Assembly (NCBI GenBank): GCA_020720815.1
Contig: DYNY01000003.1
Location: forward strand, 1,002-65,001
Reading direction: 5' to 3'
DNA length: 64,000 bases
Source of the DNA: Candidatus Elulimicrobium sp.
GTDB taxonomy: Bacteria; Patescibacteriota; Minisyncoccia; Phycocordibacterales; UBA918
The notes under the pieces are model-generated. The model was not told the DNA's origin. It did no database searches and saw only the letters and a list, made by a program, of their open reading frames with translations. Position 1 is the first letter of the stretch. Each line of letters begins with the position of its first letter. Made by a program: the position numbers and the translations under genes. This document shows positions 10,463 to 29,666 of this stretch, in pieces.

Positions 10463-11776
10463 ATGGACATTAAAAATATTCGTAAGCGCGATGGTTCGAT
10501 TCAGTCATTCAATATCGATAAAGTGCAAAGTGCTATTTTGAAAGCACTCTACGAGACACAAGAAGGCGAAGTCACTGACGCCAAAAAAGTGGCTGACCTT
10601 ACTTTGCAAAAAACTATTGCCATGTGTACGCAGGCGGTTAATGCTTTGCCAGATGAGCCAGCGGCATTGAAGTGTGTGGATGGGTATCCGGCGGTAGAAG
10701 AAGTACAAGACTTAGTGGAGCAGTCTTTGATGGAACTTAATTACTTTGAGACCGCCAAGGCATATATAATTTATCGTAATAATAGAAAGAAGCTACGTGA
10801 GAGAGATATTTTTAAGGCTCGAGTAAATCTTAAACCATATGAATACCCAGAGCTTTATGAGTATACTAATTCGATTCGACATTCCTACTGGATTCATACG
10901 GAGTTTAATTACACTAGTGACATCAATGATTTTCATGTAAACGTAACAGAGGGTGAACGAGTGGCGATAAAAAATGCCATGCTTGCGATTGCCCAGATAG
11001 AGGTGTCCGTCAAAACTTTCTGGGGTGATATCTACAAAAAAATGCCGAAACCAGAAATTGGTTCAGTGGGGGCTACTTTTTCTGAAAGTGAAGTAAGACA
11101 CGCCGATGCTTACTCCCACTTGTTAGAAATCCTTGGACTTAATCAGGAATTTGAGCGAGTAAAAGATATTCCTGTGATTCAAGAGCGCATCAAGTACCTT
11201 GAGAAAACTATCAAGTTGTCACAAACTGATGAAAATCGTCAATACATGCACTCAGTGCTATTATTTTCATTATTTATTGAGCACGTCTCACTTTTCTCTC
11301 AGTTTTTGATTATTATGTCTTTCAACAAGCACCGTAATATTTTCAAGGGTATTAGTAATGCGGTTGAGGCTACCTCAAAAGAAGAACAAATTCATGGTTT
11401 GTTCGGTATTGATGTGATCAACATTATTAAGAAAGAACATCCTGAATGGTTTGATGAAGCTTGCAAGGATATGATAATTAAAGCTTGTGAAGAAGCTTAT
11501 GAAGCTGAAAGCAAGATCATTGATTGGATTTATGAAGCAGGGGAATTAGACTTTTTACCATCCACAAATGTAAAGGAGTTTGTCAAAAATCGCTTAAATA
11601 ATTCACTAGCATCAATTGGTTTACCGCGTATCTTTGAGGTAAGTGAAGCATTACTTGAAGAAACGGATTGGTTTGATAACGAAGTGATAGCTACCAAGCA
11701 TGTCGATTTCTTTCATAAGCGCTCAATTAATTACAATAAACGCAGTGCGAGTGTGACGAGTGAGGATTTATTTTAA
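10463..11776 (+). CDS. nrdB: Ribonucleotide reductase beta subunit with N-terminal ATP-cone (NrdBi, class Id-like)
   Basis: IRKRDG...VEEVQDLVE..AKAYIIYR cone; ESEVRHADAY, IEHVSLFSQF, SKEEQIH, DFFHKR. Confidence 0.92.
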   Translation: MDIKNIRKRDGSIQSFNIDKVQSAILKALYETQEGEVTDAKKVADLTLQKTIAMCTQAVNALPDEPAALKCVDGYPAVEEVQDLVEQSLMELNYFETAKAYIIYRNNRKKLRERDIFKARVNLKPYEYPELYEYTNSIRHSYWIHTEFNYTSDINDFHVNVTEGERVAIKNAMLAIAQIEVSVKTFWGDIYKKMPKPEIGSVGATFSESEVRHADAYSHLLEILGLNQEFERVKDIPVIQERIKYLEKTIKLSQTDENRQYMHSVLLFSLFIEHVSLFSQFLIIMSFNKHRNIFKGISNAVEATSKEEQIHGLFGIDVINIIKKEHPEWFDEACKDMIIKACEEAYEAESKIIDWIYEAGELDFLPSTNVKEFVKNRLNNSLASIGLPRIFEVSEALLEETDWFDNEVIATKHVDFFHKRSINYNKRSASVTSEDLF

Positions 11777-11808
11777 ATTTACTAAATTAAATAGCAGATA
11801 AGTTAGAT

Positions 11809-13497
11809 ATGGACTCATGGTACTGGTTGAATGAAAATAGTCTCGGTTTTCTTGCTCGGGGTTATTTAGGGGAAGGACAGACGCCAGAGGAAAGAATTAG
11901 AGTGATTGCTGATACGGCCGAGAAATATCTTGGACGCAAAGGTTTTGCTGACAAGTTTTATAAGTACATGGGTAAGGGATGGATATCTCTAGCTTCACCA
12001 GTTTGGTCAAACTTTGGTAGTACCAAGGGCCTGCCAATTAGTTGTTTTGGTTCTTACATAGCAGACAACATGGGTAGCATTCTTTATTCTAACGCAGAAG
12101 TTGGTATGATGAGTAAGTTTGGTGGTGGCTGTTCTGGATACATGGGGGCACTGCGCGGGCGTGGGTCTAGTATTTCTGATAACGGACAATCTTCCGGCGC
12201 CGTGCATTTTATGCAACTATTTGAAACCTTGGTGGACGTGGTGAGTCAAGGTTCAGTCCGTCGCGGACACTTCTCGCCATACTTACCAGTTGAACACCCA
12301 GATATTTTAGAATTTTTAGACATTGGAACCGAAGGTAACCCAATTCAAAAGTTGACACACGCTGTGACGGTAACTGATAAATGGATGGAAGAGATGGTGG
12401 CTGGTGATAATGAAAAGCGAGCTATTTGGGCACGGGTAATTCAGCGTCGTGGTGAGATGGGTTATCCATATATTATGTTTACCGATACGGCCAACAAAAA
12501 TACCGTTGATGTATACAAAGAAAAAGGCCTCACTATTTATGCTAGTAACATGTGCAGTGAGATTATGTTACCGTCAAACGATGATTGGTCATTTGTCTGT
12601 TGTCTTTCTTCAATTAACCTTCTTCATTATGACGATTGGAAAGATACAGATTTAGTGGAGACTATGATTGCTTTTTTGGATGCTGTGATGGAGGACTTTA
12701 TTGTAAAGCTCGAAGCGATGCGTGATCATAAGGACCCAGAAAAGCGTTTAGGTTTTAGTTTTATGGAGCGAGCTTATAACTTTGCTAAGGCTAACCGAGC
12801 TTTAGGTCTTGGTGTCCTTGGTTGGCATTCACTGTTGCAGGCTAAACAACTAGCTTTTCAAAGCGAAGAAGCGGAAAAGATGAATATCGCAGTTTTCAAA
12901 AACATCAAAGAGCGAGCCACCAAGGCTAGTAAAGATTTAGCGGAAGAGTTGGGTGAACCAGCTGTACTTAATGGTTATGGTCGCCGTAACACCACATTGC
13001 TAGCAATTGCTCCGACCACTTCCTCAGCTTTTATATTGGGGCAGGTATCACAAGGAATTGAGCCAATCTGGTCCAACTGCTACGTTAAGGATGTGGCCAA
13101 GATGAAAGTGACAATCAAAAACCCAACTCTCCAGACTTTGTTGTCGGAAAAAGGAAAAGATACTAAAGTGATCTGGGATAGTATTCGCGATACTGATGGT
13201 TCGGTCCAACACCTCGATTTTTTGACTGACCAAGAGCGAGCGGTTTTTCGTACTTTTTCAGAAATTGATCAAGGAGCGGTGATTAAGCAGGCGGCCGATA
13301 GACAAGTTTATATCGACCAAGGTCAATCATTAAATATTATGGTTGAACCAGATACACCAGTCAAAGATATCAATCAGCTCTATATTCAGGCTTGGAGACA
13401 GGGTATAAAATCCCTTTACTACCAGCACTCGATGAACGCAGCTCAGCAGATGGTGCGCAAGAAGTTGGCCGCTAACGCAAAAGAGGCAGGCAAATAG
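11809..13497 (+). CDS. nrdA: Ribonucleotide reductase alpha subunit, cone-less (NrdAi)
   Basis: PISCF, SNMCSE, VCCL, APTTSS, IDQGQSLN, KSLYY. Confidence 0.93.
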   Translation: MDSWYWLNENSLGFLARGYLGEGQTPEERIRVIADTAEKYLGRKGFADKFYKYMGKGWISLASPVWSNFGSTKGLPISCFGSYIADNMGSILYSNAEVGMMSKFGGGCSGYMGALRGRGSSISDNGQSSGAVHFMQLFETLVDVVSQGSVRRGHFSPYLPVEHPDILEFLDIGTEGNPIQKLTHAVTVTDKWMEEMVAGDNEKRAIWARVIQRRGEMGYPYIMFTDTANKNTVDVYKEKGLTIYASNMCSEIMLPSNDDWSFVCCLSSINLLHYDDWKDTDLVETMIAFLDAVMEDFIVKLEAMRDHKDPEKRLGFSFMERAYNFAKANRALGLGVLGWHSLLQAKQLAFQSEEAEKMNIAVFKNIKERATKASKDLAEELGEPAVLNGYGRRNTTLLAIAPTTSSAFILGQVSQGIEPIWSNCYVKDVAKMKVTIKNPTLQTLLSEKGKDTKVIWDSIRDTDGSVQHLDFLTDQERAVFRTFSEIDQGAVIKQAADRQVYIDQGQSLNIMVEPDTPVKDINQLYIQAWRQGIKSLYYQHSMNAAQQMVRKKLAANAKEAGK

Positions 13498-17494: not shown

Positions 17495-17917
17495 ATGGCA
17501 AAAAAATTAGTAAAGAAAATCAAAGTTCAAGCCACAGGTGGAAAAGCTACACCAGCTCCACCTTTAGGACCAGTACTAGGACAAGCCGGTATTAATATCG
17601 GTGAGTTCGTTAATCAATTTAACGAACAAACACGTGACCGTATGGGTCAGGTAGTACCGGTAGAACTTTCGGTTTACGATGATCGTACTTTTACTTTCAT
17701 TACCAAAGTATCACCAATGTCTCGTCTTATTCTAAAGGCACTCGGTAAAGACAAGGGTTCAAGTAAGAATGCTGTATCAAAAGTCGGTACCCTTACACAG
17801 GCTCAAGTCAAAGCCATTGCTGAAGAAAAGATGGCTGATCTCAACGCTGCTTCACTCGAAGCTGCGATGAAAACAGTGGCCGGTACTGCGCGCTCAATGG
17901 GCGTAAACGTGGAATAA
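17495..17917 (+). CDS. rplK: 50S ribosomal protein L11
   Basis: ATPAPPLGPVLGQAGINIGEF...GTARSMG. Confidence 0.97.
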   Translation: MAKKLVKKIKVQATGGKATPAPPLGPVLGQAGINIGEFVNQFNEQTRDRMGQVVPVELSVYDDRTFTFITKVSPMSRLILKALGKDKGSSKNAVSKVGTLTQAQVKAIAEEKMADLNAASLEAAMKTVAGTARSMGVNVE

Positions 17918-18113
17918 ATCCACGTTTACGAAGCTTTTGAGCTCTTTTATGAGCGATAGCGATGTAAAAGAGCCAAAAGGTATACAGTTTCTGTTAAGAA
18001 ATAAACGTGGAATAAATCCACGTTTACGAAGCTTTTGAGCTCTTTTATGAGCGATAGCGATGTAAAAGAGCCAAAAGGTATACAGTTTCTGTTAAGAAAT
18101 AAACGTGGAATAA
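17904..18113 (+). repeat. 98-bp tandem repeat (2 copies plus 14 bp) starting in the last codons of rplK
   Basis: Units start at 17904, 18002 and 18100 with taaacgtggaataa. Confidence 0.9.
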
Positions 18114-18128
18114 TAGACAAAATCAAGT

Positions 18129-18165
18129 AAAAAACCAGCGGTCTCTTAGAGACCGCTGGTTTTTT
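18129..18165. terminator. Bidirectional terminator between rplK and folA
   Basis: aaaaaaccagcggtctc-tta-gagaccgctggtttttt. Confidence 0.85.
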
Positions 18166-18200: not shown

Positions 18201-18722
18201 TTAAGAATTTCGTCTTTTATAATCAACCCATTGAAATTCAAAGTTGCCACTTTGTACTGGTATGTGCTCTTTGGTAGGAACAAAATCATTTTCATATTCT
18301 GGGAAGAAAGAATCAGCTAATGGTTCGCTATCGACAATGGTTAGGTGTAAGCGATCAACATACGGCATGGTTGTTGCGTAAAGTTCGGCTCCACCGCCAA
18401 TGTGTATCTCTTTGGGATTTCCTCTCTCTGCAATAGCAAAGGCAGCCTCTAGTGAACCGGCGGTAATAGCGCCCGGGACTTTGTAGTCAGGGTTACGGGT
18501 GACAATGATATTGGTCCTACCTGGTAGTGGCTTGCCCAGCATAGCGACGATAGATTCAAAGGTCTTTCGCCCCATAATAATAGGATGACCAAGGGTCAGC
18601 TCCTTAAATCGCTTTAAGTCCGCTGGAATATGCCAGAGAAGCTTATTTTTATAACCAATAGCTCGTTTCTTTCGGCTCATCGCCGCCACGATTACGATCG
18701 GTGTGGTTGGAAAGTGCATCAT
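18201..18722 (-). CDS. folA: Dihydrofolate reductase
   Basis: AIG..NKLLWHIPADLKRFK, IMGRKTFESI, PLPGRTNI, IGGGAELY, ADSFFP. Confidence 0.95.
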   Translation of the reverse strand: MMHFPTTPIVIVAAMSRKKRAIGYKNKLLWHIPADLKRFKELTLGHPIIMGRKTFESIVAMLGKPLPGRTNIIVTRNPDYKVPGAITAGSLEAAFAIAERGNPKEIHIGGGAELYATTMPYVDRLHLTIVDSEPLADSFFPEYENDFVPTKEHIPVQSGNFEFQWVDYKRRNS

Positions 18723-18793
18723 GGTCACATTATGCCACAAGCCAGAGTGGATGTCTTTTGGCAGACCGCTTCGGGCTCACGTATAATAGAGTC

Positions 18794-19468
18794 ATGTCAC
18801 ACTTTGAAATTGAGATCAAAAGTCTATTAGGTGAAAAAAAGAACGCAGAAGCTTTAATCGAGGCGATGAAAAGCCACGATGGAGAGTGTGCTCTTTTATC
18901 TAAAAACACCCAGTTAAATCATTACTTCACCGGCGGTTCGATTCATGAGTTATACAAAAAAGTTGAACATCTTTTTACCGGGGTTGAGCATGAAAAAATA
19001 AAAACCATTACCGAGCGAGGAAAGGATTTTTCGATTCGTACCCGACAGAGAGATGACGAAGTCTTGTTGGTTATAAAAGCGGCGATTGATGGTGGCACTA
19101 GTGCTAACGCTGTCTCACGCCTTGAGTTTGAAGAACCGGTGGCAATCACCCTAACGGGACTTGATGATTTACTGATGACGGCTGGATATACTTACGAGGC
19201 CAAATGGTCACGCAGGCGTGAGGAGTATGTTTACAAAGGAGTGGCAGTCTGTATTGATAAAAATGCCGGCTATGGTTACTTGGCTGAATTTGAGACGGTG
19301 ACAGAGGATGAAAGTAGTTTGCCAGCAGTGCGGGAGAAATTAAAAGAATTGATGGATGAGCTTGGAGTGGCCGAATTACCGCAAGAACGTCTAGCGCGCA
19401 TGTTCGCACACTACAATTCCAACTGGAAGGAGTATTATGGTACTGAAAAGACTTTTGTTATTGAATAA
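18794..19468 (+). CDS. CYTH / triphosphate tunnel metalloenzyme family protein
   Basis: N-terminal EIEIK, IRTRQR, K..R.EFE, RRREEY, CIDKN..YG.LAEFE. Confidence 0.8.
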   Translation: MSHFEIEIKSLLGEKKNAEALIEAMKSHDGECALLSKNTQLNHYFTGGSIHELYKKVEHLFTGVEHEKIKTITERGKDFSIRTRQRDDEVLLVIKAAIDGGTSANAVSRLEFEEPVAITLTGLDDLLMTAGYTYEAKWSRRREEYVYKGVAVCIDKNAGYGYLAEFETVTEDESSLPAVREKLKELMDELGVAELPQERLARMFAHYNSNWKEYYGTEKTFVIE

Positions 19469-19478
19469 TTATCACAAT

Positions 19479-20033
19479 ATGTTTCTATCTGATGTCGATA
19501 TCATGAAGGGGGTGCACGATGGCAAGATTGTTATTAGGCCGTTTAATGAGTCTCAACTTCAGCTAGCTAGTTATGATGTTACACTTGGGAATGAGTTTGA
19601 AGTAGTAGACAGACATTTACTTGAAGCTTCCGACCCGGCCCATAAAATTTATCCAGCTACTCGCAAAGTAATGATTCCCGATGATGGCGAATTCGTTCTT
19701 CATCCAGGTGAAAATGTTCTCGGTAAGCAACGTGAGTTTATTGGAGTCGATAATGAACACCTGATTCTGCTTTCCGGTAAAAGTAGTTTGGCTCGTATTG
19801 GACTGGTGGTTCATAACACCGCTATGCTTTTTAATCCCGGGCATCATTTCTACCCCACCTTTGAGCTAGTGAATAGTAGTAATATTCCAATTATTCTTCG
19901 TCCGGGTATGCAGGTGGCTCAGTTACTTTTTGCTAGACTGACTTCACCGACCAGTAAAGACTATATGGGTGAGTCCGGAGTTGGGCGTTTTGATAGTGAG
20001 AACTCAGACCATTTTGCTGAACCAAAAAAATAA
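19479..20033 (+). CDS. dcd: dCTP deaminase
   Basis: LSDVDI, QLASYDVTLG, FVLHPGE, GKSSLARIG, catalytic E in PTFEL, GMQVAQL. Confidence 0.9.
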   Translation: MFLSDVDIMKGVHDGKIVIRPFNESQLQLASYDVTLGNEFEVVDRHLLEASDPAHKIYPATRKVMIPDDGEFVLHPGENVLGKQREFIGVDNEHLILLSGKSSLARIGLVVHNTAMLFNPGHHFYPTFELVNSSNIPIILRPGMQVAQLLFARLTSPTSKDYMGESGVGRFDSENSDHFAEPKK

Positions 20034-20049
20034 TTTAATTATAATTATT

Positions 20050-21060
20050 ATGTCCCAAAAACACCCCGAGTACCAATACTTAGATTTGATGCAGGATATT
20101 CTTGATAATGGTTTTAATAAGCCACTTTTCTTCAACCAAGTAGTGCTCGATGAGTACGCTAGCAAAGGAGAAGAGCCACCATTTATTCGGTCAGTTTTTG
20201 GACGACAAATTCGGTTTGATTTAAGTGACGGTTTCCCATTGTTGACCACCAAGAAAACCTTTTGGCGAGGCATCACCACTGAACTATTGTGGTTTCTCTC
20301 TGGTAGCTCAAATATTAAACCACTAATTGATGCCAATAATCATATTTGGGATGAATGGGCTTGGAAGCATTACCATATGTGGGCAGTAGAAAATGCACCA
20401 AAAGAGGACATGGAGCAGGATGCTTTTATTGCCAAGCTCTTAGAGTTACCAGAGACTGATCCTTTTGTGCAAAAGTGGGGTGACATTATTACTATTTATG
20501 GTCGAATGTGGCGACGTTGGCCAGCTAAAGATGGTCGTGAGATAGACCAACTAGCCTGGGCGATTGAAGGATTGAAGAATCGACCAGAAAGGAAGTCGTA
20601 TGTGGTGAGTGCCTGGAATCCTGATTTTATTTATGAGATGGCCTCGGAAGGACAACACTCCCAAGTACCACCTTTTTGTCATACTATGTTCCAGTTTCAG
20701 GTAGCCAACGGTAAATTAAATCTTGGTCTCTATCAACGTTCGGGGGATTTGTTTCTCGGTGTGCCATTTAATATCGCAAGTTACGCGCTATTACTCCAAA
20801 TGGTTTCTCAAATAGTTGGCATCCCGCCAGGTGAGTTCGTTCATACTTTTGGTGATGTTCACCTTTACTCCAATCATATGGAGCAAGTAAATGAACAACT
20901 AACTCGTGGGCCACTGCCTTTTCCAACGGTGAAACTTAATCCTGAAATCAAAAATATTGATGATTTCAAAATAGAAGATATAACGCTTGAAAACTACGAA
21001 TCGCATGGAGCCCTGCGGGCCCCAATAGCCAACATTGGTGGTTTTATCAAGAAGAAATAG
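20050..21060 (+). CDS. thyA: Thymidylate synthase (divergent)
   Basis: FPLLTTKK, ELLWFL, PPFCH, YQRSGD, VPFNIASY, GDVHLYSNH. Confidence 0.92.
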   Translation: MSQKHPEYQYLDLMQDILDNGFNKPLFFNQVVLDEYASKGEEPPFIRSVFGRQIRFDLSDGFPLLTTKKTFWRGITTELLWFLSGSSNIKPLIDANNHIWDEWAWKHYHMWAVENAPKEDMEQDAFIAKLLELPETDPFVQKWGDIITIYGRMWRRWPAKDGREIDQLAWAIEGLKNRPERKSYVVSAWNPDFIYEMASEGQHSQVPPFCHTMFQFQVANGKLNLGLYQRSGDLFLGVPFNIASYALLLQMVSQIVGIPPGEFVHTFGDVHLYSNHMEQVNEQLTRGPLPFPTVKLNPEIKNIDDFKIEDITLENYESHGALRAPIANIGGFIKKK

Positions 21061-21272
21061 ATATACTATTAAAATAATTTTGTAACATGATTTAATACCA
21101 CTCGTTCAATTACAGAAAGACGGTCACTTCATTTTTTGAGTCGTTTGTTCCAGGAATTTTTGCTGGGAAGGGCAAAAATTTGGAACTAAATTAAGTAAGT
21201 AAAGGAGCCATTGAGCGACTATTATGAACTTATGCAAGGCTCAAAATATTCATTACATTCATTTTTTCATTT

Positions 21273-22541
21273 ATGAACGAGTATCAATTTATTAAAGATC
21301 AAGATCCAGAAATTTACGCCACTTTAGTTGGTGAGGAGGAGCGAGAGCGTAAAGGCGTAGAGCTAATTCCCAGTGAGAACTATGTATCGAAGGCTGTACG
21401 TGAAGCCAATGGCTCAGTCTTTACCAACAAATATTCCGAAGGTTACCCTGGTCGACGCTACTATGGCGGACAAGAGTTTACTGACATTATGGAGACAATT
21501 ACTATTGAGCGGGCGAAGAAACTTTTCAACGCCAAGTATGCCAATGTGCAACCGCTCGGTGGGGCAGCGGCTAACGTGGCGATGTACTTTGCTCTGATGG
21601 AGCCGGGTGATACTGTGCTCGGAATGGACTTAAGTCACGGCGGACACTTAACCCATGGACATCCAACGACCGCCATCAACAAAGTTTTTAACTTTGTGCG
21701 GTACAAGATGAAGGATGTTGATACTGGCGAGATAGATTACGAGGCTCTTCGCCAGGTGGCACTCGAACATAAGCCAAAGATTATTCTAGCCGGTTTCTCA
21801 GCTTATAGTCGCGAGCTTGATTATGAGAAGTTTGTGGCGATTGCTAAAGAAGTGGGAGCTTACACTGTTGCTGACATGGCGCATATTGCTGGACTCATTG
21901 CTGGAGGGGTAGCGAAAAATCCTTTTGACGCTGGCTTTGATGTTATTACGACTACTACTCACAAAACCTTGCGTGGGCCACGCGGGGGAATGATTTTGAT
22001 TCGTGAGAATGAAGATATCGCCAAACGTATTAACAAAGCAGTTTTTCCAGGTATGCAAGGCGGTCCACACATGAATACAATTGCCGGTAAAGGGGTGGCT
22101 TTTGGGGAAGCGTTGACGCCAGCTTTTAAGGTCTATGTCGCACAAATTCTCAAAAACACTAAGGCGATGGAGGTAGTCTTTAAAGCACACGATGTTAGAT
22201 TACTTTGTGGGGGAACTGACAACCACTTGTTGTTGGCTGATGTCTTTGGTTCACTAGGCATCACCGGTCAAGAAGCTGAGACAGTCCTAGATGAAGTTGG
22301 AATTACGCTCAATAAAAACATGATTGCTGATGAGACTCGCACTGCTATGGACCCTTCTGGCATACGTTTTGGTACACCAGCCATGACCACTCGGGGCATG
22401 AAGGAAAGGGAGGCTACTAAACTCGCAGAGATTATGATTACTACCATGCAAGCCAAAGATGATTCAGCTAAAAAAGTTGAATTACAAAGAGAAGTACAGA
22501 CTCTCTGCGAGGCTTTCCCTGTACCAGAAAAGTTTGTTTAA
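21273..22541 (+). CDS. glyA: Serine hydroxymethyltransferase
   Basis: LIPSEN, NKYSEGYPGRRYYGG, HGGHLTHG, TTTHKTLRGPRGG. Confidence 0.97.
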   Translation: MNEYQFIKDQDPEIYATLVGEEERERKGVELIPSENYVSKAVREANGSVFTNKYSEGYPGRRYYGGQEFTDIMETITIERAKKLFNAKYANVQPLGGAAANVAMYFALMEPGDTVLGMDLSHGGHLTHGHPTTAINKVFNFVRYKMKDVDTGEIDYEALRQVALEHKPKIILAGFSAYSRELDYEKFVAIAKEVGAYTVADMAHIAGLIAGGVAKNPFDAGFDVITTTTHKTLRGPRGGMILIRENEDIAKRINKAVFPGMQGGPHMNTIAGKGVAFGEALTPAFKVYVAQILKNTKAMEVVFKAHDVRLLCGGTDNHLLLADVFGSLGITGQEAETVLDEVGITLNKNMIADETRTAMDPSGIRFGTPAMTTRGMKEREATKLAEIMITTMQAKDDSAKKVELQREVQTLCEAFPVPEKFV

Positions 22542-26093: not shown

Positions 26094-29000
26094 ATGAGCA
26101 AATTACATGGACGAGAGAATGATTCAGTTAAGGTTGAAGAAGTTTTTAATAAAAGTGAAGTGGCACTACGCGAAGAGGCCATCCAAGCTTTTTGGGTAGA
26201 GCATGATATTTTTAATAAAAGTTTAGAGAAGCCAGCTGGGGTAGAGCCAAAGGGAGATTTTGTGTTTTATGATGGTCCACCGTTTGCCACTGGACTACCG
26301 CACTACGGACATATTCTAGCGGGGACTATTAAGGATGCCATTCCTCGTTTTTGGACGATGCAGGGCTTTCATGTGCGTCGCCAGTGGGGTTGGGATTGTC
26401 ATGGTTTGCCACTAGAGAATTTGATTGAGAAGAAACTAGGTCTTTCTAATAAGCGGGATATTGAGGCGTATGGGGTCAAGAATTTTAATGAGCAAGCGCG
26501 CGAGGCGGTTTTGGAGTATCGTGACGATTGGAAAAAGGTCGTACCACGAATGGGACGATGGGCTGATATGGAGAACGATTATAAAACGATGGATAGCACC
26601 TACACTGAGAGTGTCTGGTGGGTTTTCAAGCAACTGCATGAAAAAGGTCTGGTGTATGAAGGCTTTAAAAGTATGCACCTGTGTCCGCGTTGTGGGACGA
26701 CCCTAAGTAATTTTGAGGTCAATCAGGGTTATAAGGATATTAAAGACATTGCGGTATTTGTTGAATTACCCTTTACTGAGCCACTGCTTGAGGTTGGAGA
26801 ACCAGTCACTTCACTTATCGTTTGGACCACTACCCCTTGGACACTACCGGGTAACATGGCAGCGGCGGTACATAAGGATTTTGATTATGTAGTAGTAGAG
26901 AAAAAAGATGAAGGTAGAGGCGCTTTAGTGCGGTTTGTGGTGGCTAAGGCGCGTGCAGTTTCCGTCTTTGGTAACGATGAGTACATCATTGTTAAAGAAC
27001 TGAAAGGCTCTGATCTCGTTGGTCGTTCTTATGAGCCACCATTTTCGTATTTACAAAATCAGGATTTTAAAGGCAAGGACAAGGTTTGGAAAATTTATCA
27101 CGCCGATTATGTCGAACTTGGTGTAGAGGGTACGGGAGCAGTGCACCTAGCGCCAGCGTATGGTGAAGAAGACATGGTCTTGGCTAAAGCTGAAGGTGTT
27201 CCAATTGTGCACCATGTCGATTATGAAGGACGATTTATGCCATTTGTGACTGACTTTGCCGGAGAATTAGTGAAGCCAAAAGACGACGATGCGTCGGGTA
27301 TTGATCACAAAGACGCTGACATCAAGATACTAAAGGCGCTCCAAGCTAGTGGTAAGATTTTCAAAAAGGAAAATATTACCCATAGCTACCCACATTGTTG
27401 GCGTGACGATACACCGCTTTTGAATTACGCTACCACTTCTTGGTTTGTGAAAGTGACGGATATCAAAGATGACTTGGTAGAAGCTAATAATAAAGTGCAT
27501 TGGGTACCTGAGCATGTTGGTAGTAATCGTTTCGGTCGTTGGCTAGAGGGGGCTCGTGACTGGGCAGTTTCTCGTCAACGTTACTGGGGAGCACCAATAC
27601 CAATTTGGCGTAATCCAAAGACTGGCACATATAAAGTGTTTGGTTCCAAAGGGGAACTGTTGGATCATGTACCAAAGTCTGGTAATACAATTTTTTTGAC
27701 TCGTCATGGTGAATCAGTCTTTAACACCCAAAATCGTCTTAATGGAAAAATTGGTGTAGAGAATGATTTGACTGAATTAGGTCAAAAGCAGTCGGCTGAA
27801 TCGGCCAGGAAATTGAAAACGGCAGGAATTGATTATATTTATTATTCACCACTTCTTCGTACTGAAAAAACTGCTAAAATAATGGCTGAAGTGCTTGGCG
27901 TACCTGAGCAAAATGTACTGGCAGATGAAAGGCTCCTAGAAATGCAGTTTGGTCAGTTTGAAGACAAGACGGTAGAGGAATATCATGCTTTTTTTGGTAC
28001 TGGTTCTGGAAGACTGACTAAAAGACCAGATGGGGGGGAAAGTTGGACCGATGTAAAGAAAAGAATGGGAGTTTTTCTGTTTGAACTTGAGCAAAAACAT
28101 CAAGGAAAAAAGATTTTGGTGGTCTCGCATAATGGCCCGCTACAGATGGTGCAAGCAGCTGCGAGAGGAGATGATTTTGTCACTACCGCTAAGCATATTG
28201 ATAACAATGGTTACGATCTAACAAATGCTGAGCTACGCCAGTTGAATTTTATCTCGTATCCGCATAATGACAATTTCGAACTTGATTACCACCGACCATA
28301 TATTGATGAGGTGACTGTGCTCGATATCGATGCTGTAAAACTTGAACGAGTACCGGATGTATTTGATTGTTGGTTCGAAAGTGGGGCGATGCCATATGGA
28401 CAACACCATTACCCGTTTTCGTGCCCGGTTGATAAATTTGCTAAGGAATATTTCCCGGCCCAATTTATTGCTGAGGGGCTCGATCAAACGCGGGGCTGGT
28501 TTTATTCACTCATTGTGCTTGGTACAGCCTTGTTTGGTAAATCACCGTATGAGAATGTGATTGTAAATGGTCTAGTCTTGGCGGAAGACGGCAAGAAGAT
28601 GAGTAAATCGCTTCGTAACTATCCAGACCCGATGGAATTAGCCGATCGAGTGGGAGTTGATGCGATGCGTTACTATCTACTTTCGGCACCGATTATGAGG
28701 TCAGAAGATCTGGCTTTTTCGGAAAAGGAAGTGCTTGAGTTACAACGAAAAAACATTGGCCGTTTACATAACGTACTAGCAATGTATGAGATGTTCGCTG
28801 ATGGTACCAAAGCTACGGCTGATTCTACCCAGGTGCTTGACCGTTGGATAATTGCACGACTGAATCAGCTAATAGCTGAATCAACACAGTGGTATAAAGC
28901 CTATGAGTTAGATAAAGCTACTCGGCCACTGGCAGATTTTATTGATGATTTGTCGGTGTGGTACTTACGTCGTAGTCGTGACCGTTTCAAGGGGGCTGAA

Positions 29001-29666
29001 GAAGAAGATAAAAAAGTGGCACTGAGTACGCTTCGGTTTGTGCTTCGAGAATTGGCTAAAATAATGGCACCAGCTATGCCGTTTTATGCAGAGTACCTGT
29101 ATCTCGCGGTACGTGAAGAAGTTGAAGCAGAAAGTGTCCATCTTACAGCCTGGCCAGAGGGGGGAGAAGTACATGAATCATTAATAGTCGATATGGTCGA
29201 AGTCCGCCGACTGACCACTGTGGCTCTGGAAGCTAGGACCAAAGCAAAAATTAATGTCAAACAACCACTCGCTCTACTTAAGGTAAAAATATCTGAGCCA
29301 GCAGTTAAGCTTTTGTTTGGACTTCTGGCTTCAGAATTAAACGTAAAAACTGTAGTGGAGGATCCTTTCCTGGAAGGTGAGGGTGTGTGGCTTGATACTA
29401 ATATTACCCCTGAATTAAAAATTGAAGGTGATGCCCGGGAGTTTATTCGTGGTGTTCAGGAGCGTCGCAAAGCCGAAGGCTTTGCGACGCAAGACCGTAT
29501 CGAACTTATTGTTTTTACCGAAAGCGGTGGAGAAGCAGTATTAAATAGTTTCAAAGAAATGATTACCAAAACTGTTGGTGCTAATGAAATTATTTTTGAT
29601 GCTAACTCAGGGACAGAAATCAAAGCTGGAGATTATTTCTTTAGAATTTTGTTGAAAAAAATCTAA
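26094..29666 (+). CDS. ileS: Isoleucine--tRNA ligase (type 2-like) with inserted histidine-phosphatase domain
   Basis: DGPPFATGLPHYGH, GWDCHGLP, WTTTPWTLPGN, KMSKS; internal TRHGES...SPLLR...E...VVSHNG. Confidence 0.95.
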   Translation: MSKLHGRENDSVKVEEVFNKSEVALREEAIQAFWVEHDIFNKSLEKPAGVEPKGDFVFYDGPPFATGLPHYGHILAGTIKDAIPRFWTMQGFHVRRQWGWDCHGLPLENLIEKKLGLSNKRDIEAYGVKNFNEQAREAVLEYRDDWKKVVPRMGRWADMENDYKTMDSTYTESVWWVFKQLHEKGLVYEGFKSMHLCPRCGTTLSNFEVNQGYKDIKDIAVFVELPFTEPLLEVGEPVTSLIVWTTTPWTLPGNMAAAVHKDFDYVVVEKKDEGRGALVRFVVAKARAVSVFGNDEYIIVKELKGSDLVGRSYEPPFSYLQNQDFKGKDKVWKIYHADYVELGVEGTGAVHLAPAYGEEDMVLAKAEGVPIVHHVDYEGRFMPFVTDFAGELVKPKDDDASGIDHKDADIKILKALQASGKIFKKENITHSYPHCWRDDTPLLNYATTSWFVKVTDIKDDLVEANNKVHWVPEHVGSNRFGRWLEGARDWAVSRQRYWGAPIPIWRNPKTGTYKVFGSKGELLDHVPKSGNTIFLTRHGESVFNTQNRLNGKIGVENDLTELGQKQSAESARKLKTAGIDYIYYSPLLRTEKTAKIMAEVLGVPEQNVLADERLLEMQFGQFEDKTVEEYHAFFGTGSGRLTKRPDGGESWTDVKKRMGVFLFELEQKHQGKKILVVSHNGPLQMVQAAARGDDFVTTAKHIDNNGYDLTNAELRQLNFISYPHNDNFELDYHRPYIDEVTVLDIDAVKLERVPDVFDCWFESGAMPYGQHHYPFSCPVDKFAKEYFPAQFIAEGLDQTRGWFYSLIVLGTALFGKSPYENVIVNGLVLAEDGKKMSKSLRNYPDPMELADRVGVDAMRYYLLSAPIMRSEDLAFSEKEVLELQRKNIGRLHNVLAMYEMFADGTKATADSTQVLDRWIIARLNQLIAESTQWYKAYELDKATRPLADFIDDLSVWYLRRSRDRFKGAEEEDKKVALSTLRFVLRELAKIMAPAMPFYAEYLYLAVREEVEAESVHLTAWPEGGEVHESLIVDMVEVRRLTTVALEARTKAKINVKQPLALLKVKISEPAVKLLFGLLASELNVKTVVEDPFLEGEGVWLDTNITPELKIEGDAREFIRGVQERRKAEGFATQDRIELIVFTESGGEAVLNSFKEMITKTVGANEIIFDANSGTEIKAGDYFFRILLKKI

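Follow-up and report, generated by a model that had tools for sequence, protein, structure and literature searches.

A CYTH protein linked to a thymidylate synthase with a rebuilt phosphate site in Patescibacteria lacking dut

The thymidylate locus and the genome that carries it

We analyzed a 64,000-nucleotide stretch (the window) of contig DYNY01000003.1 from Candidatus Elulimicrobium sp., a member of the Patescibacteria, with a focus on a thymidylate module that includes a gene for a CYTH protein. The genome (GCA_020720815.1; 856 kb, 98.36% complete) is called G000, and the other G and L numbers denote genomes and loci of relatives. The dihydrofolate reductase gene folA lies on the minus strand (18201..18722; PF00186 E 9.6e-47), and its product regenerates tetrahydrofolate after reductive methylation. 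On the plus strand, three genes follow: the gene of a CYTH or triphosphate tunnel metalloenzyme (TTM) of 224 amino acids (18794..19468; PF01928 E 1e-9), the dCTP deaminase gene dcd (19479..20033; TIGR02274 130.2 bits, cut-off 92.8) and the thymidylate synthase gene thyA (20050..21060; TIGR03284 342.6 bits, cut-off 108), whose product is called ThyA* below. The serine hydroxymethyltransferase gene glyA (21273..22541, plus strand; NF000586 547 bits) comes next. The gaps are 10 nt between CYTH and dcd, 16 nt between dcd and thyA, and 212 nt between thyA and glyA. The coordinates, gaps and family searches confirm the arrangement given in a preliminary description, namely folA divergent from a tight CYTH-dcd-thyA run that is followed by glyA.

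Back-to-back promoter-like sites, recognized by consensus match only, lie between folA and the CYTH-dcd-thyA run (18729..18787, both strands). The plus-strand site (18758-18787) is TTGGCA-18-TATAAT, with 11 of 12 consensus bases, and the minus-strand site (18757-18729) has an extended -10. As the scan gave 11 sites where 9.3 were expected, only the position and the 11/12 score favor these sites. With them, the CYTH start is better placed at the ATG at 18794 than at the GTG at 18701.

In the whole G000 genome, PF00692 matched dcd alone; thus, the absence of trimeric dut, which had been noted for the window, extends to the genome. No true match was found genome-wide for dimeric dUTPase (PF08761), MazG or dCMP deaminase, and neither CYTH nor any other G000 gene beyond dcd showed homology to the known dUTP pyrophosphatases (trimeric Dut, dimeric dUTPase, MazG). 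Thymidylate kinase (Tmk) was found in G000 neither by Pfam nor by a profile built from the Tmk of relatives, and no thymidine kinase match exceeded the cut-off. ThyA* was the single ThyA match, ThyX not being searched genome-wide. Nucleoside diphosphate kinase (NDK), class I ribonucleotide reductase (RNR) and uracil-DNA glycosylase (UDG) are all present, as are three Nudix genes. The module has been described as lacking only the step from dUTP to dUMP. This statement is not supported, because Tmk was not found in G000 either and the phosphate site of ThyA is rebuilt.

The NDK of G000 (201 amino acids) has an insertion of ~28 amino acids that splits the Pfam match, and split NDK is seen family-wide. 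Its gene lies on contig C8 (L534:889-4305), where secY is followed by a cytidylate-kinase-like gene (labelled from its sequence), two tandem adenylate-kinase paralogues, map and NDK.

Co-occurrence of CYTH and ThyA* within and beyond the family

Each gene was searched in the same 121 genomes of the family. CYTH was matched in 63, and the 61 with full-length matches of at least 218 bits were counted; a fragment (G245) and a weak match (G216) were dropped. In the family, 60 CYTH loci and 37 others were read. At all 60 other strong CYTH loci, dcd lies within ~1.3 kb of CYTH. Thus, the CYTH-dcd linkage is far above chance, and CYTH belongs to the thymidylate module, as had been proposed.

The stretch between rplK and glyA occurs in alternative forms. 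One is folA with the CYTH-dcd-thyA run. Another carries a deaminase with an inverted thyA or thyX, followed by tmk and by dut or MazG, and yet another carries a third ThyA type with HIT genes. In the loci read, glyA is the constant right border of every island form, and folA neighbors the ThyA* loci and is missing at the ThyX-type loci seen.

Of the 61 CYTH genomes, 59 have ThyA*, and none of the 60 others does (synthases were classed by bit score, and the class was checked in the sequence for 56 of the 59). Two CYTH genomes depart from this pattern: G230 has ThyX, tmk and dut, and G307 has canonical ThyA, tmk and a divergent dut. In a glyA tree with 83 genomes, we counted 20 changes in CYTH status, and among 10 independent pairs ThyA* tracks CYTH in 9.6 (p ~0.002); since glyA borders the island, this tree is imperfect as a species tree.

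Full-length dut (at least 88 bits): It was detected in 1 of the 61 CYTH genomes, 32 of the 60 others and none of the 59 ThyA* genomes of the family. When weaker dut-like matches are included, the counts are 7/61 and 36/60. The anticorrelation of CYTH with dut, which had been put forward for testing, is thus observed. In the independent-pair test, CYTH against lack of dut alone gave 4.4 same and 0 opposite pairs, which is not significant (p 0.125). Five of the six weaker dut-like copies in CYTH genomes were read; all lack motifs II and V, and four also lack the motif-III Asp. The sixth copy is in G287, and G203 may carry a dut as well, both outside the set read. Genes of this kind, encoding 128-132 amino acids without motifs II and V, occur at L069:3304-3696, L072:3472-3870, L081:3841-4236, L101:7548-7937, L062:2992-3378 and L131:7551-7949. 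Where canonical ThyA is the neighbor (G307, G301), these genes retain the motif-III Asp; next to ThyA* (G258, G310, G293, G263), they have lost it.

Tmk: We counted matches that reach 50 bits and added one incomplete gene at a contig end. Tmk is present in 19 of 59 ThyA* genomes, against 35 of 35 with canonical, other or no ThyA detected (ThyX where seen); to reach 35/35, three Tmk-less genomes without ThyA, Dcd and Dut matches were dropped. By synthase, the counts are 12/12 for canonical ThyA, 2/2 for another ThyA type, 21/24 without a ThyA match and 10/24 for the third ThyA type. Among the genomes without a ThyA match, the 11 with the island read carry ThyX. When Tmk is compared with ThyA* and the third type is excluded, 5 of 6 independent pairs show the same trend and none the opposite (p 0.06); when the third type is added, significance is not reached (p 0.375). 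The Tmk matches of the ThyA* genomes G224, G289 and G244 lie outside the island, among apparently accessory genes. All CYTH genomes with a canonical-site synthase or ThyX (G230, G307, G107) retain tmk. NDK is present in 118 of the 121 genomes and UDG in 5 of 5 checked.

The third ThyA type (R127 to T; R or K at 126) is found at L135-L151, for example L135:5411-8302. Its loci contain two HIT-like genes, a HIGH-type nucleotidyltransferase-like gene and a fused dCMP-deaminase-like gene. Tmk is missing in 14 of these 24 genomes and CYTH in all of them. This type is possibly another Tmk bypass, via a nucleotidylated intermediate.

Other families: A class sample of 201 genomes contained the CYTH clade in three others, all of family f12. 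Two of them have CYTH, a CDA-fold deaminase and an archaeal-type thymidylate synthase (TS) with R126 changed to F, and have neither tmk nor dut; in the third, the TS has both arginines, and tmk is present. The f12 synthases (L132:576-1979, L133:5044-6447, L134:4659-6107) are fused to an MtrA-like N-terminal domain and an extra C-terminal domain, directly after CYTH and the deaminase. In a phylum sample of 351 genomes, strong CYTH matches were obtained in 17 others. Sixteen of these loci, from five other families, were read, and G464 enters only the tallies of 18 and 34 given below. In 16/16, ThyA* comes after CYTH, either immediately or with one HIT gene in between, folA is close, and the Asp of Dcd is kept. 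None of the 16 genomes has an intact dut, and seven have a Tmk match above 60 bits. Of 80 metagenome CYTH loci, 65 reach a TS and 57 have a readable site, none with the Arg-Arg pair.

The reverse search of the phylum sample found 34 ThyA* genomes, 18 with CYTH and 16 without; we therefore rejected the idea that ThyA* needs this CYTH. In 13 of the 16, a dUTPase-fold gene of 179-186 amino acids adjoins or lies near ThyA*, usually beside a separate deaminase. The deaminase Glu is absent from this protein, and the water-activating Asp of dUTPase is absent in 11 of 13 and kept in G505 and G562. Loss of that Asp lowers Dut activity ~5000-fold (PMC5519681; this and the other PMC papers are cited from excerpts). 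The upstream slot of ThyA* is thus occupied by one or the other of two unrelated folds that bind triphosphates, and the usual dUMP-making machinery is lacking in both. The dUTPase-fold loci (L413-L428, e.g. L413:6097-6636, 179 amino acids) encode a conserved YRGQWQGGRV-type tail. In ten of the 16 genomes Tmk was searched for, with no match in six, a weak match in two and a strong match in two; four others have tmk within the locus. No partner occurs in the stretch read of G420, G325 and G575 (contig edge).

The scan of viral sequences with CYTH query A1 gave no match. Query A3 gave a single degenerate CYTH with no thyA in the stretch examined: at L453:663-1337, on a phage-like contig, a clade member lacks the RxR, KWSR and second ExE residues, and no thymidylate genes lie in the 6.3 kb examined. 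Among 80 viral ThyA loci, 78 have both arginines and two are unreadable, and none has this CYTH. The 50,697 annotated phages gave no match to the CYTH clade. Since the viral scans need exact peptide words, distant viral members could escape.

From these results, the constant partner of CYTH is ThyA* and not the Asn-type Dcd described below. The CYTH-ThyA* association is real, widespread and functionally linked.

Active sites of CYTH, Dcd and ThyA*

CYTH: By its N-terminal ExExK and eight-stranded tunnel fold, the protein is a member of the CYTH/TTM superfamily (PF01928 38.8 bits, cut-off 23.2). Its structure model has a pLDDT of 93, and the top Foldseek ranks are SaTTM and PH1819 (E 6e-10). 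The motifs are E5-x-E7-x-K9, S80-x-R82-x-R84, K95, R140/R142 and E165-x-E167. E5, E7 and K9 are invariant among the relatives aligned; R82/R84 align with R56/R58 of SaTTM, and E165/E167 with its E135/E137. N42-H43-Y44, also invariant, lies at the strand expected for DxY, a placement made by strand and not by residue-by-residue alignment. AtTTM3 has NxF in place of DxY (PMC8233210). In addition, residues 50-75 of CYTH form a two-helix insert, and its C-terminal plug region is rich in aromatic residues.

Three sequence determinants part cyclases from gamma-phosphatases, and ExE and xRxR are tied to attack on the gamma-phosphate (PMC8233210). CYTH has both xRxR arginines and both ExE glutamates, which are invariant in the A1 and A3 alignment sets; one family member (G611) lacks R84. 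The class IV adenylate cyclase pattern is absent: H3-F4 directly precede E5, H3 is unconserved, and R82 and E167 are kept. The TIGR00318 score for class IV cyclase (22.9 bits) is below the cut-off of 57.95. The W/YxRxR of thiamine triphosphatase is also absent, with S80 at this position and S, A or T in relatives. Since CYTH has the gamma-phosphatase state at all three determinants, its product from dUTP would be expected to be dUDP, and not dUMP or a cyclic nucleotide. The preliminary description had regarded CYTH as a dUTP pyrophosphatase or triphosphatase. A triphosphatase fits the motifs, whereas a pyrophosphatase is not supported, the motifs being those of gamma-phosphate hydrolases. SaTTM converts ATP to ADP and Pi, and its base adjoins the C-terminal plug helix (PMC8233210). 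The richness of the CYTH plug region in invariant aromatics suggests a specific nucleoside pocket.

The archaeal TTMs SaTTM (Saci_0718; 7ns8-7nsf) and PH1819 (2een) are the top matches in fold and sequence, and share ExExK, A/S-x-R-x-R, the K69/K110/R112 equivalents and ExE. However, CYTH is only 13-21% identical to them, is longer (224 vs ~177 amino acids), and has the insert, the long conserved C-terminal region, N-H-Y instead of D-x-Y and a fixed link to thymidylate genes. SaTTM, in contrast, prefers inorganic triphosphate and has no base specificity (PMC8233210). The cyclase CyaB (Y. pestis 3n0y; TIGR00318) shares the fold, but CYTH has none of its three cyclase determinants. The CYTH family is nevertheless mislabelled as "adenylate cyclase class IV" in databases. 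Homologues are labelled Paceibacterota, Nomurabacteria and Kaiserbacteria; matches at E <=0.001 come to 3857 clusters, a count that takes in more distant CYTHs, and a search of GTDB genomes gave 464 matching stretches. The ESM Atlas gave only further "CYTH domain" clusters, from Minisyncoccota. A shorter, generic CYTH follows rplK in G154, and at 12 generic CYTH loci there were no thymidylate genes within 1.5 kb.

In several loci, CYTH and dcd are separated by an HAD hydrolase gene, or such a gene lies nearby, and in others a HinT-like HIT gene is immediately upstream of ThyA*. The loci are L054, L065, L072, L093, L100, L104; L057, L070, L078, L087, L263, L266.

Dcd: The deaminase Glu is kept, and the GKSSLAR and FEL motifs and the Ser, Arg and Glu residues are those of a dCTP deaminase. 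The closest solved relative is M. tuberculosis Dcd:dut (2qxx; E 2e-29), with which the substrate-site Ala, Ser, Arg and Glu are shared. At the motif-3 Asp of 2qxx (Asp119) and of E. coli Dcd (1xs1), the window Dcd has Asn119 (19833-19835, FNPGH), as have all family copies read; in this respect, it differs from a bifunctional Dcd:dut. The Asp is needed for hydrolysis in Dut, as shown with D83N (PMC5519681), and we infer that the requirement extends to Dcd:dut. The Asn form in the family is always accompanied by CYTH or dut: the seven genomes with Asn-type Dcd but without CYTH all have dut. Thus, the window Dcd probably releases dUTP. The FNPGH motif had been taken as an argument against a bifunctional enzyme. 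Asn119 is confirmed and the 7/7 count agrees with this argument, but as a general argument it is not supported, because E. coli Dcd, which is monofunctional, also has IDPG and the Asp is kept at 16/16 CYTH loci of the five other families. As the Asn also occurs in seven genomes without CYTH, we rejected the Asp-to-Asn change as a hallmark of the system.

ThyA*: The numbering of R21, R126, R127 and R166 follows PMC6005164. ThyA* is a folate-dependent ThyA by its fold, catalytic Cys, R166/S167/D169, uracil-specific Asn and H207/Y209. It is 49% identical to the long ThyA of L. casei/E. faecalis type, with which the catalytic Cys, R166, S167, D169, N177, H207 and Y209 are shared, and its model (m79349b966211) superposes on L. 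casei TS with Z 37.8 and rmsd 1.8 over 298 residues. In the window protein, these functions are retained as C210, R230, S231, D233, N241, H271 and Y273. The uracil, sugar and catalytic residues are invariant in the 42 ThyA* aligned. In contrast, of the four phosphate arginines only R166 is kept. Compared with solved structures, the R21 loop is replaced, and K182-S183 (20593-20598) stand at R126-R127. All 23 canonical ThyAs of Patescibacteria that were compared carry R21, R126 and R127, whereas these arginines are missing from all 58 ThyA*. Thus, what differs is the 5'-phosphate end. In the VAAP-clade ThyA, one arginine (Arg127) is replaced (PMC6005164). The chain continues past the usual C-terminal APIAV into a Gly-Gly-aromatic extension (G330-G331). 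In a tree of the 58 ThyA* and 23 canonical sequences, ThyA* forms one clade (branch SH-aLRT 100), and its specific invariant residues, W170, P191, Y195, G330 and G331, include no basic one. A role of ThyA* in making a modified base is disfavored by the invariant uracil-specific Asn, the adjacent folA and the single ThyA match in G000.

A possible diphosphate route to thymine nucleotides

Taken broadly, the chances seem evenly balanced that many Patescibacteria make thymine nucleotides without dUMP or dTMP: ThyA* would methylate dUDP (or dUTP), fed by a TTM-fold triphosphatase or by an Asp-less dUTPase-fold protein, and Dut and Tmk would drop out. For CYTH and ThyA*, which travel as a unit, the explanation we favor, tentatively, is that they make thymine nucleotides at the diphosphate level, bypassing Dut and Tmk. 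In this scheme, Dcd would convert dCTP to dUTP, which CYTH would cut to dUDP by releasing the gamma-phosphate. The dUDP would then be methylated by ThyA*, with FolA and GlyA recycling the folate, and NDK would convert the resulting dTDP to dTTP. dUDP made by RNR could also feed ThyA* directly. One enzyme pair would thereby clear dUTP and spare Tmk. No simpler scheme accommodates what was observed: the linkage and co-occurrence of CYTH and ThyA*, the loss of dut and, for the most part, of tmk, the gamma-phosphatase motifs, the replaced arginines, the mostly Asp-less dUTPase-fold partners, and the retention of tmk in the CYTH genomes with other synthases. The substrates and products are all inferred.

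Several points weigh against this route. A TS acting on dUDP was not found in the literature searched, and a natural TS that lacks R127 retains activity on dUMP, at a raised Km (PMC6005164). A diphosphate substrate might need more basic residues, whereas ThyA* gains no invariant one. Re-phosphorylation of dUDP to dUTP by NDK would make a futile cycle, and SaTTM favors inorganic triphosphate ~19-fold over NTPs (PMC8233210). In G000, the two adenylate-kinase paralogues and the cytidylate-kinase-like gene could replace Tmk. Tmk is moreover kept in the 19 ThyA* genomes of the family and in 7/16 genomes of other families, it is also missing in the 14 genomes with the third ThyA type, which lack CYTH, and the 35/35 count partly reflects the sharing of one cassette by tmk and those synthases. 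Two of the 13 dUTPase-fold partners (G505, G562) keep the Asp. Finally, G307 has CYTH, canonical ThyA, Asn-type Dcd and only a divergent dut, which is most simply explained by CYTH feeding a dUMP enzyme.

A rather unlikely alternative is close to the original proposal: CYTH may be a non-orthologous dUTPase that supplies dUMP, either directly or as dUDP trimmed by a kinase run backwards. ThyA* would then methylate dUMP in the ordinary way, its phosphate site being merely weakened, and dTMP would be phosphorylated by a general NMP kinase. This is partly supported. It accounts for the anticorrelation of CYTH with dut (1/61 vs 32/60), for the dut or MazG gene in the same module of the alternative islands, for the dUTPase fold of the other ThyA* partner, with its Asp kept in 2/13, and for G307 and G107, which pair CYTH with canonical-site synthases and have no full-length dut; single arginine losses are tolerated (PMC6005164), and spare kinases exist. 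Yet the CYTH motifs predict beta-gamma cleavage, the pair test for CYTH against lack of dut did not reach significance, and it is left unexplained why CYTH is almost never found with canonical ThyA or ThyX (2/61), why three arginines are replaced, and why Tmk is dispensable here and kept in all 35 canonical or ThyX-type genomes. Improbable, in our estimate, is a phosphotransferase that would replace both Tmk and Dut by moving the gamma-phosphate or pyrophosphate of dUTP to dTMP or dTDP. The loss of both genes would fit. The TTM fold takes in the polyphosphate polymerase Vtc4, which is listed among the fold matches and transfers gamma-phosphate, and the many invariant aromatic and polar residues off the metal site of CYTH could make a second nucleotide pocket. 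Such an enzyme, however, would not by itself need a rebuilt ThyA, although ThyA* is the tightest partner; the dUTPase-fold replacement would have to perform the same transfer chemistry, and NDK is nearly always present (118/121). With NDK this common, CYTH is also unneeded as an NDK substitute, and that idea was rejected.

A further quite unlikely explanation is that ThyA* methylates dUTP to dTTP, and that the role of CYTH or of the Asp-less dUTPase-fold protein is to bind, present or limit dUTP. Dut and Tmk would again be unneeded, the open phosphate site and the Asp-less partners would fit, and the three ThyA* genomes without a partner in the stretch read (G420, G325, G575) would be accounted for; but CYTH retains a full hydrolase active site, ThyA* has no new basic residues, and a standing dUTP pool would be hazardous where UDG is kept. 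UDG in 5/5 genomes also disfavors a uracil-tolerant genome. Very unlikely, too, is that CYTH is a housekeeping inorganic triphosphatase or general NTPase hitch-hiking in a mobile cassette. Most characterized TTMs prefer inorganic triphosphate (PMC8233210), cassettes move as blocks, and the generic CYTH after rplK in G154 lends itself to this idea. The link to ThyA*, however, survives differing gene orders, differing deaminases, several ThyA* subtypes and seven families, the CYTH slot is taken by another dUTP-binding fold when CYTH is absent, and the 12 generic loci have no such neighbors. The least probable alternative is a nucleotide cyclase, by which dUTP would become 3',5'-cyclic dUMP, be methylated by ThyA* and be reversed with PPi to dTTP. 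A phosphodiester with a single charge would be well served by fewer arginines, the absence of dut and tmk would be explained, and class IV cyclases share the fold; but all three determinants of PMC8233210 fail (no HFxxxxExExK, R82 kept, E167 kept), and H271 and Y273, which bind the 3'-OH, are invariant in ThyA*. This model was rejected on the CYTH motifs.

The diphosphate route that we prefer would differ from the E. coli-type route (Dcd, Dut, ThyA, FolA, GlyA, Tmk, Ndk), which relatives carry in the same rplK-glyA island. Dcd, the ThyA fold, FolA, GlyA and NDK are shared, whereas here Dut and Tmk were not found, CYTH is in the module, and ThyA is rebuilt at the phosphate site and extended at the C terminus. 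To our knowledge, Dut and Tmk are generally considered to be almost universal. De novo dTTP synthesis is said to have dUMP as its obligate precursor (PMC5519681). All parts of the module come from known families; together they would form a new version of thymidylate synthesis and possibly a new entry point. If the proposed route is true, a synthase that uses dUDP or dUTP would open a new way into thymine synthesis, the missing dut and tmk in many CPR genomes would be explained, and a large CYTH family mislabelled as adenylate cyclase would gain a function. Even if CYTH supplies dUMP, a TTM-fold enzyme in this role would be a new non-orthologous replacement of dUTPase. In the full-text literature searched, most subscription journals and supplements being outside its scope, we found no paper on the CYTH-ThyA* pairing or on a dUDP-level synthase, and the excerpts of PMC12697855, PMC12455944, PMC1524935 and PMC10733785 contain nothing on the pairing. 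For the CYTH triphosphatases of jumbo phages, PMC7824862 raises the possibility that CYTH and MazG enzymes break down NTPs, much as dUTPase does with its substrate; in the excerpt, this is a one-line speculation on phage DNA modification with no link to ThyA.

Other features of the window were also noted. The class I RNR genes for the small and large subunits (10463..13497, plus strand; PF02867 matches and open reading frames) would supply dCDP and dUDP. The small-subunit label was taken from reading the sequence, with no family search behind it; the gene (10463-11776) presumably bears an N-terminal ATP-cone. The large subunit is short (562 amino acids). An exact tandem duplication with internal hairpins (17904-18113), whose 98-nt unit begins at the rplK stop codon, could be a stop-codon-anchored repeat or an assembly artefact; a bidirectional terminator-like hairpin (18129-18165) lies downstream of it. 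The isoleucyl-tRNA synthetase (1190 amino acids; 26094-29666) has an inserted segment with an RHG motif, which we take to be histidine-phosphatase-like.

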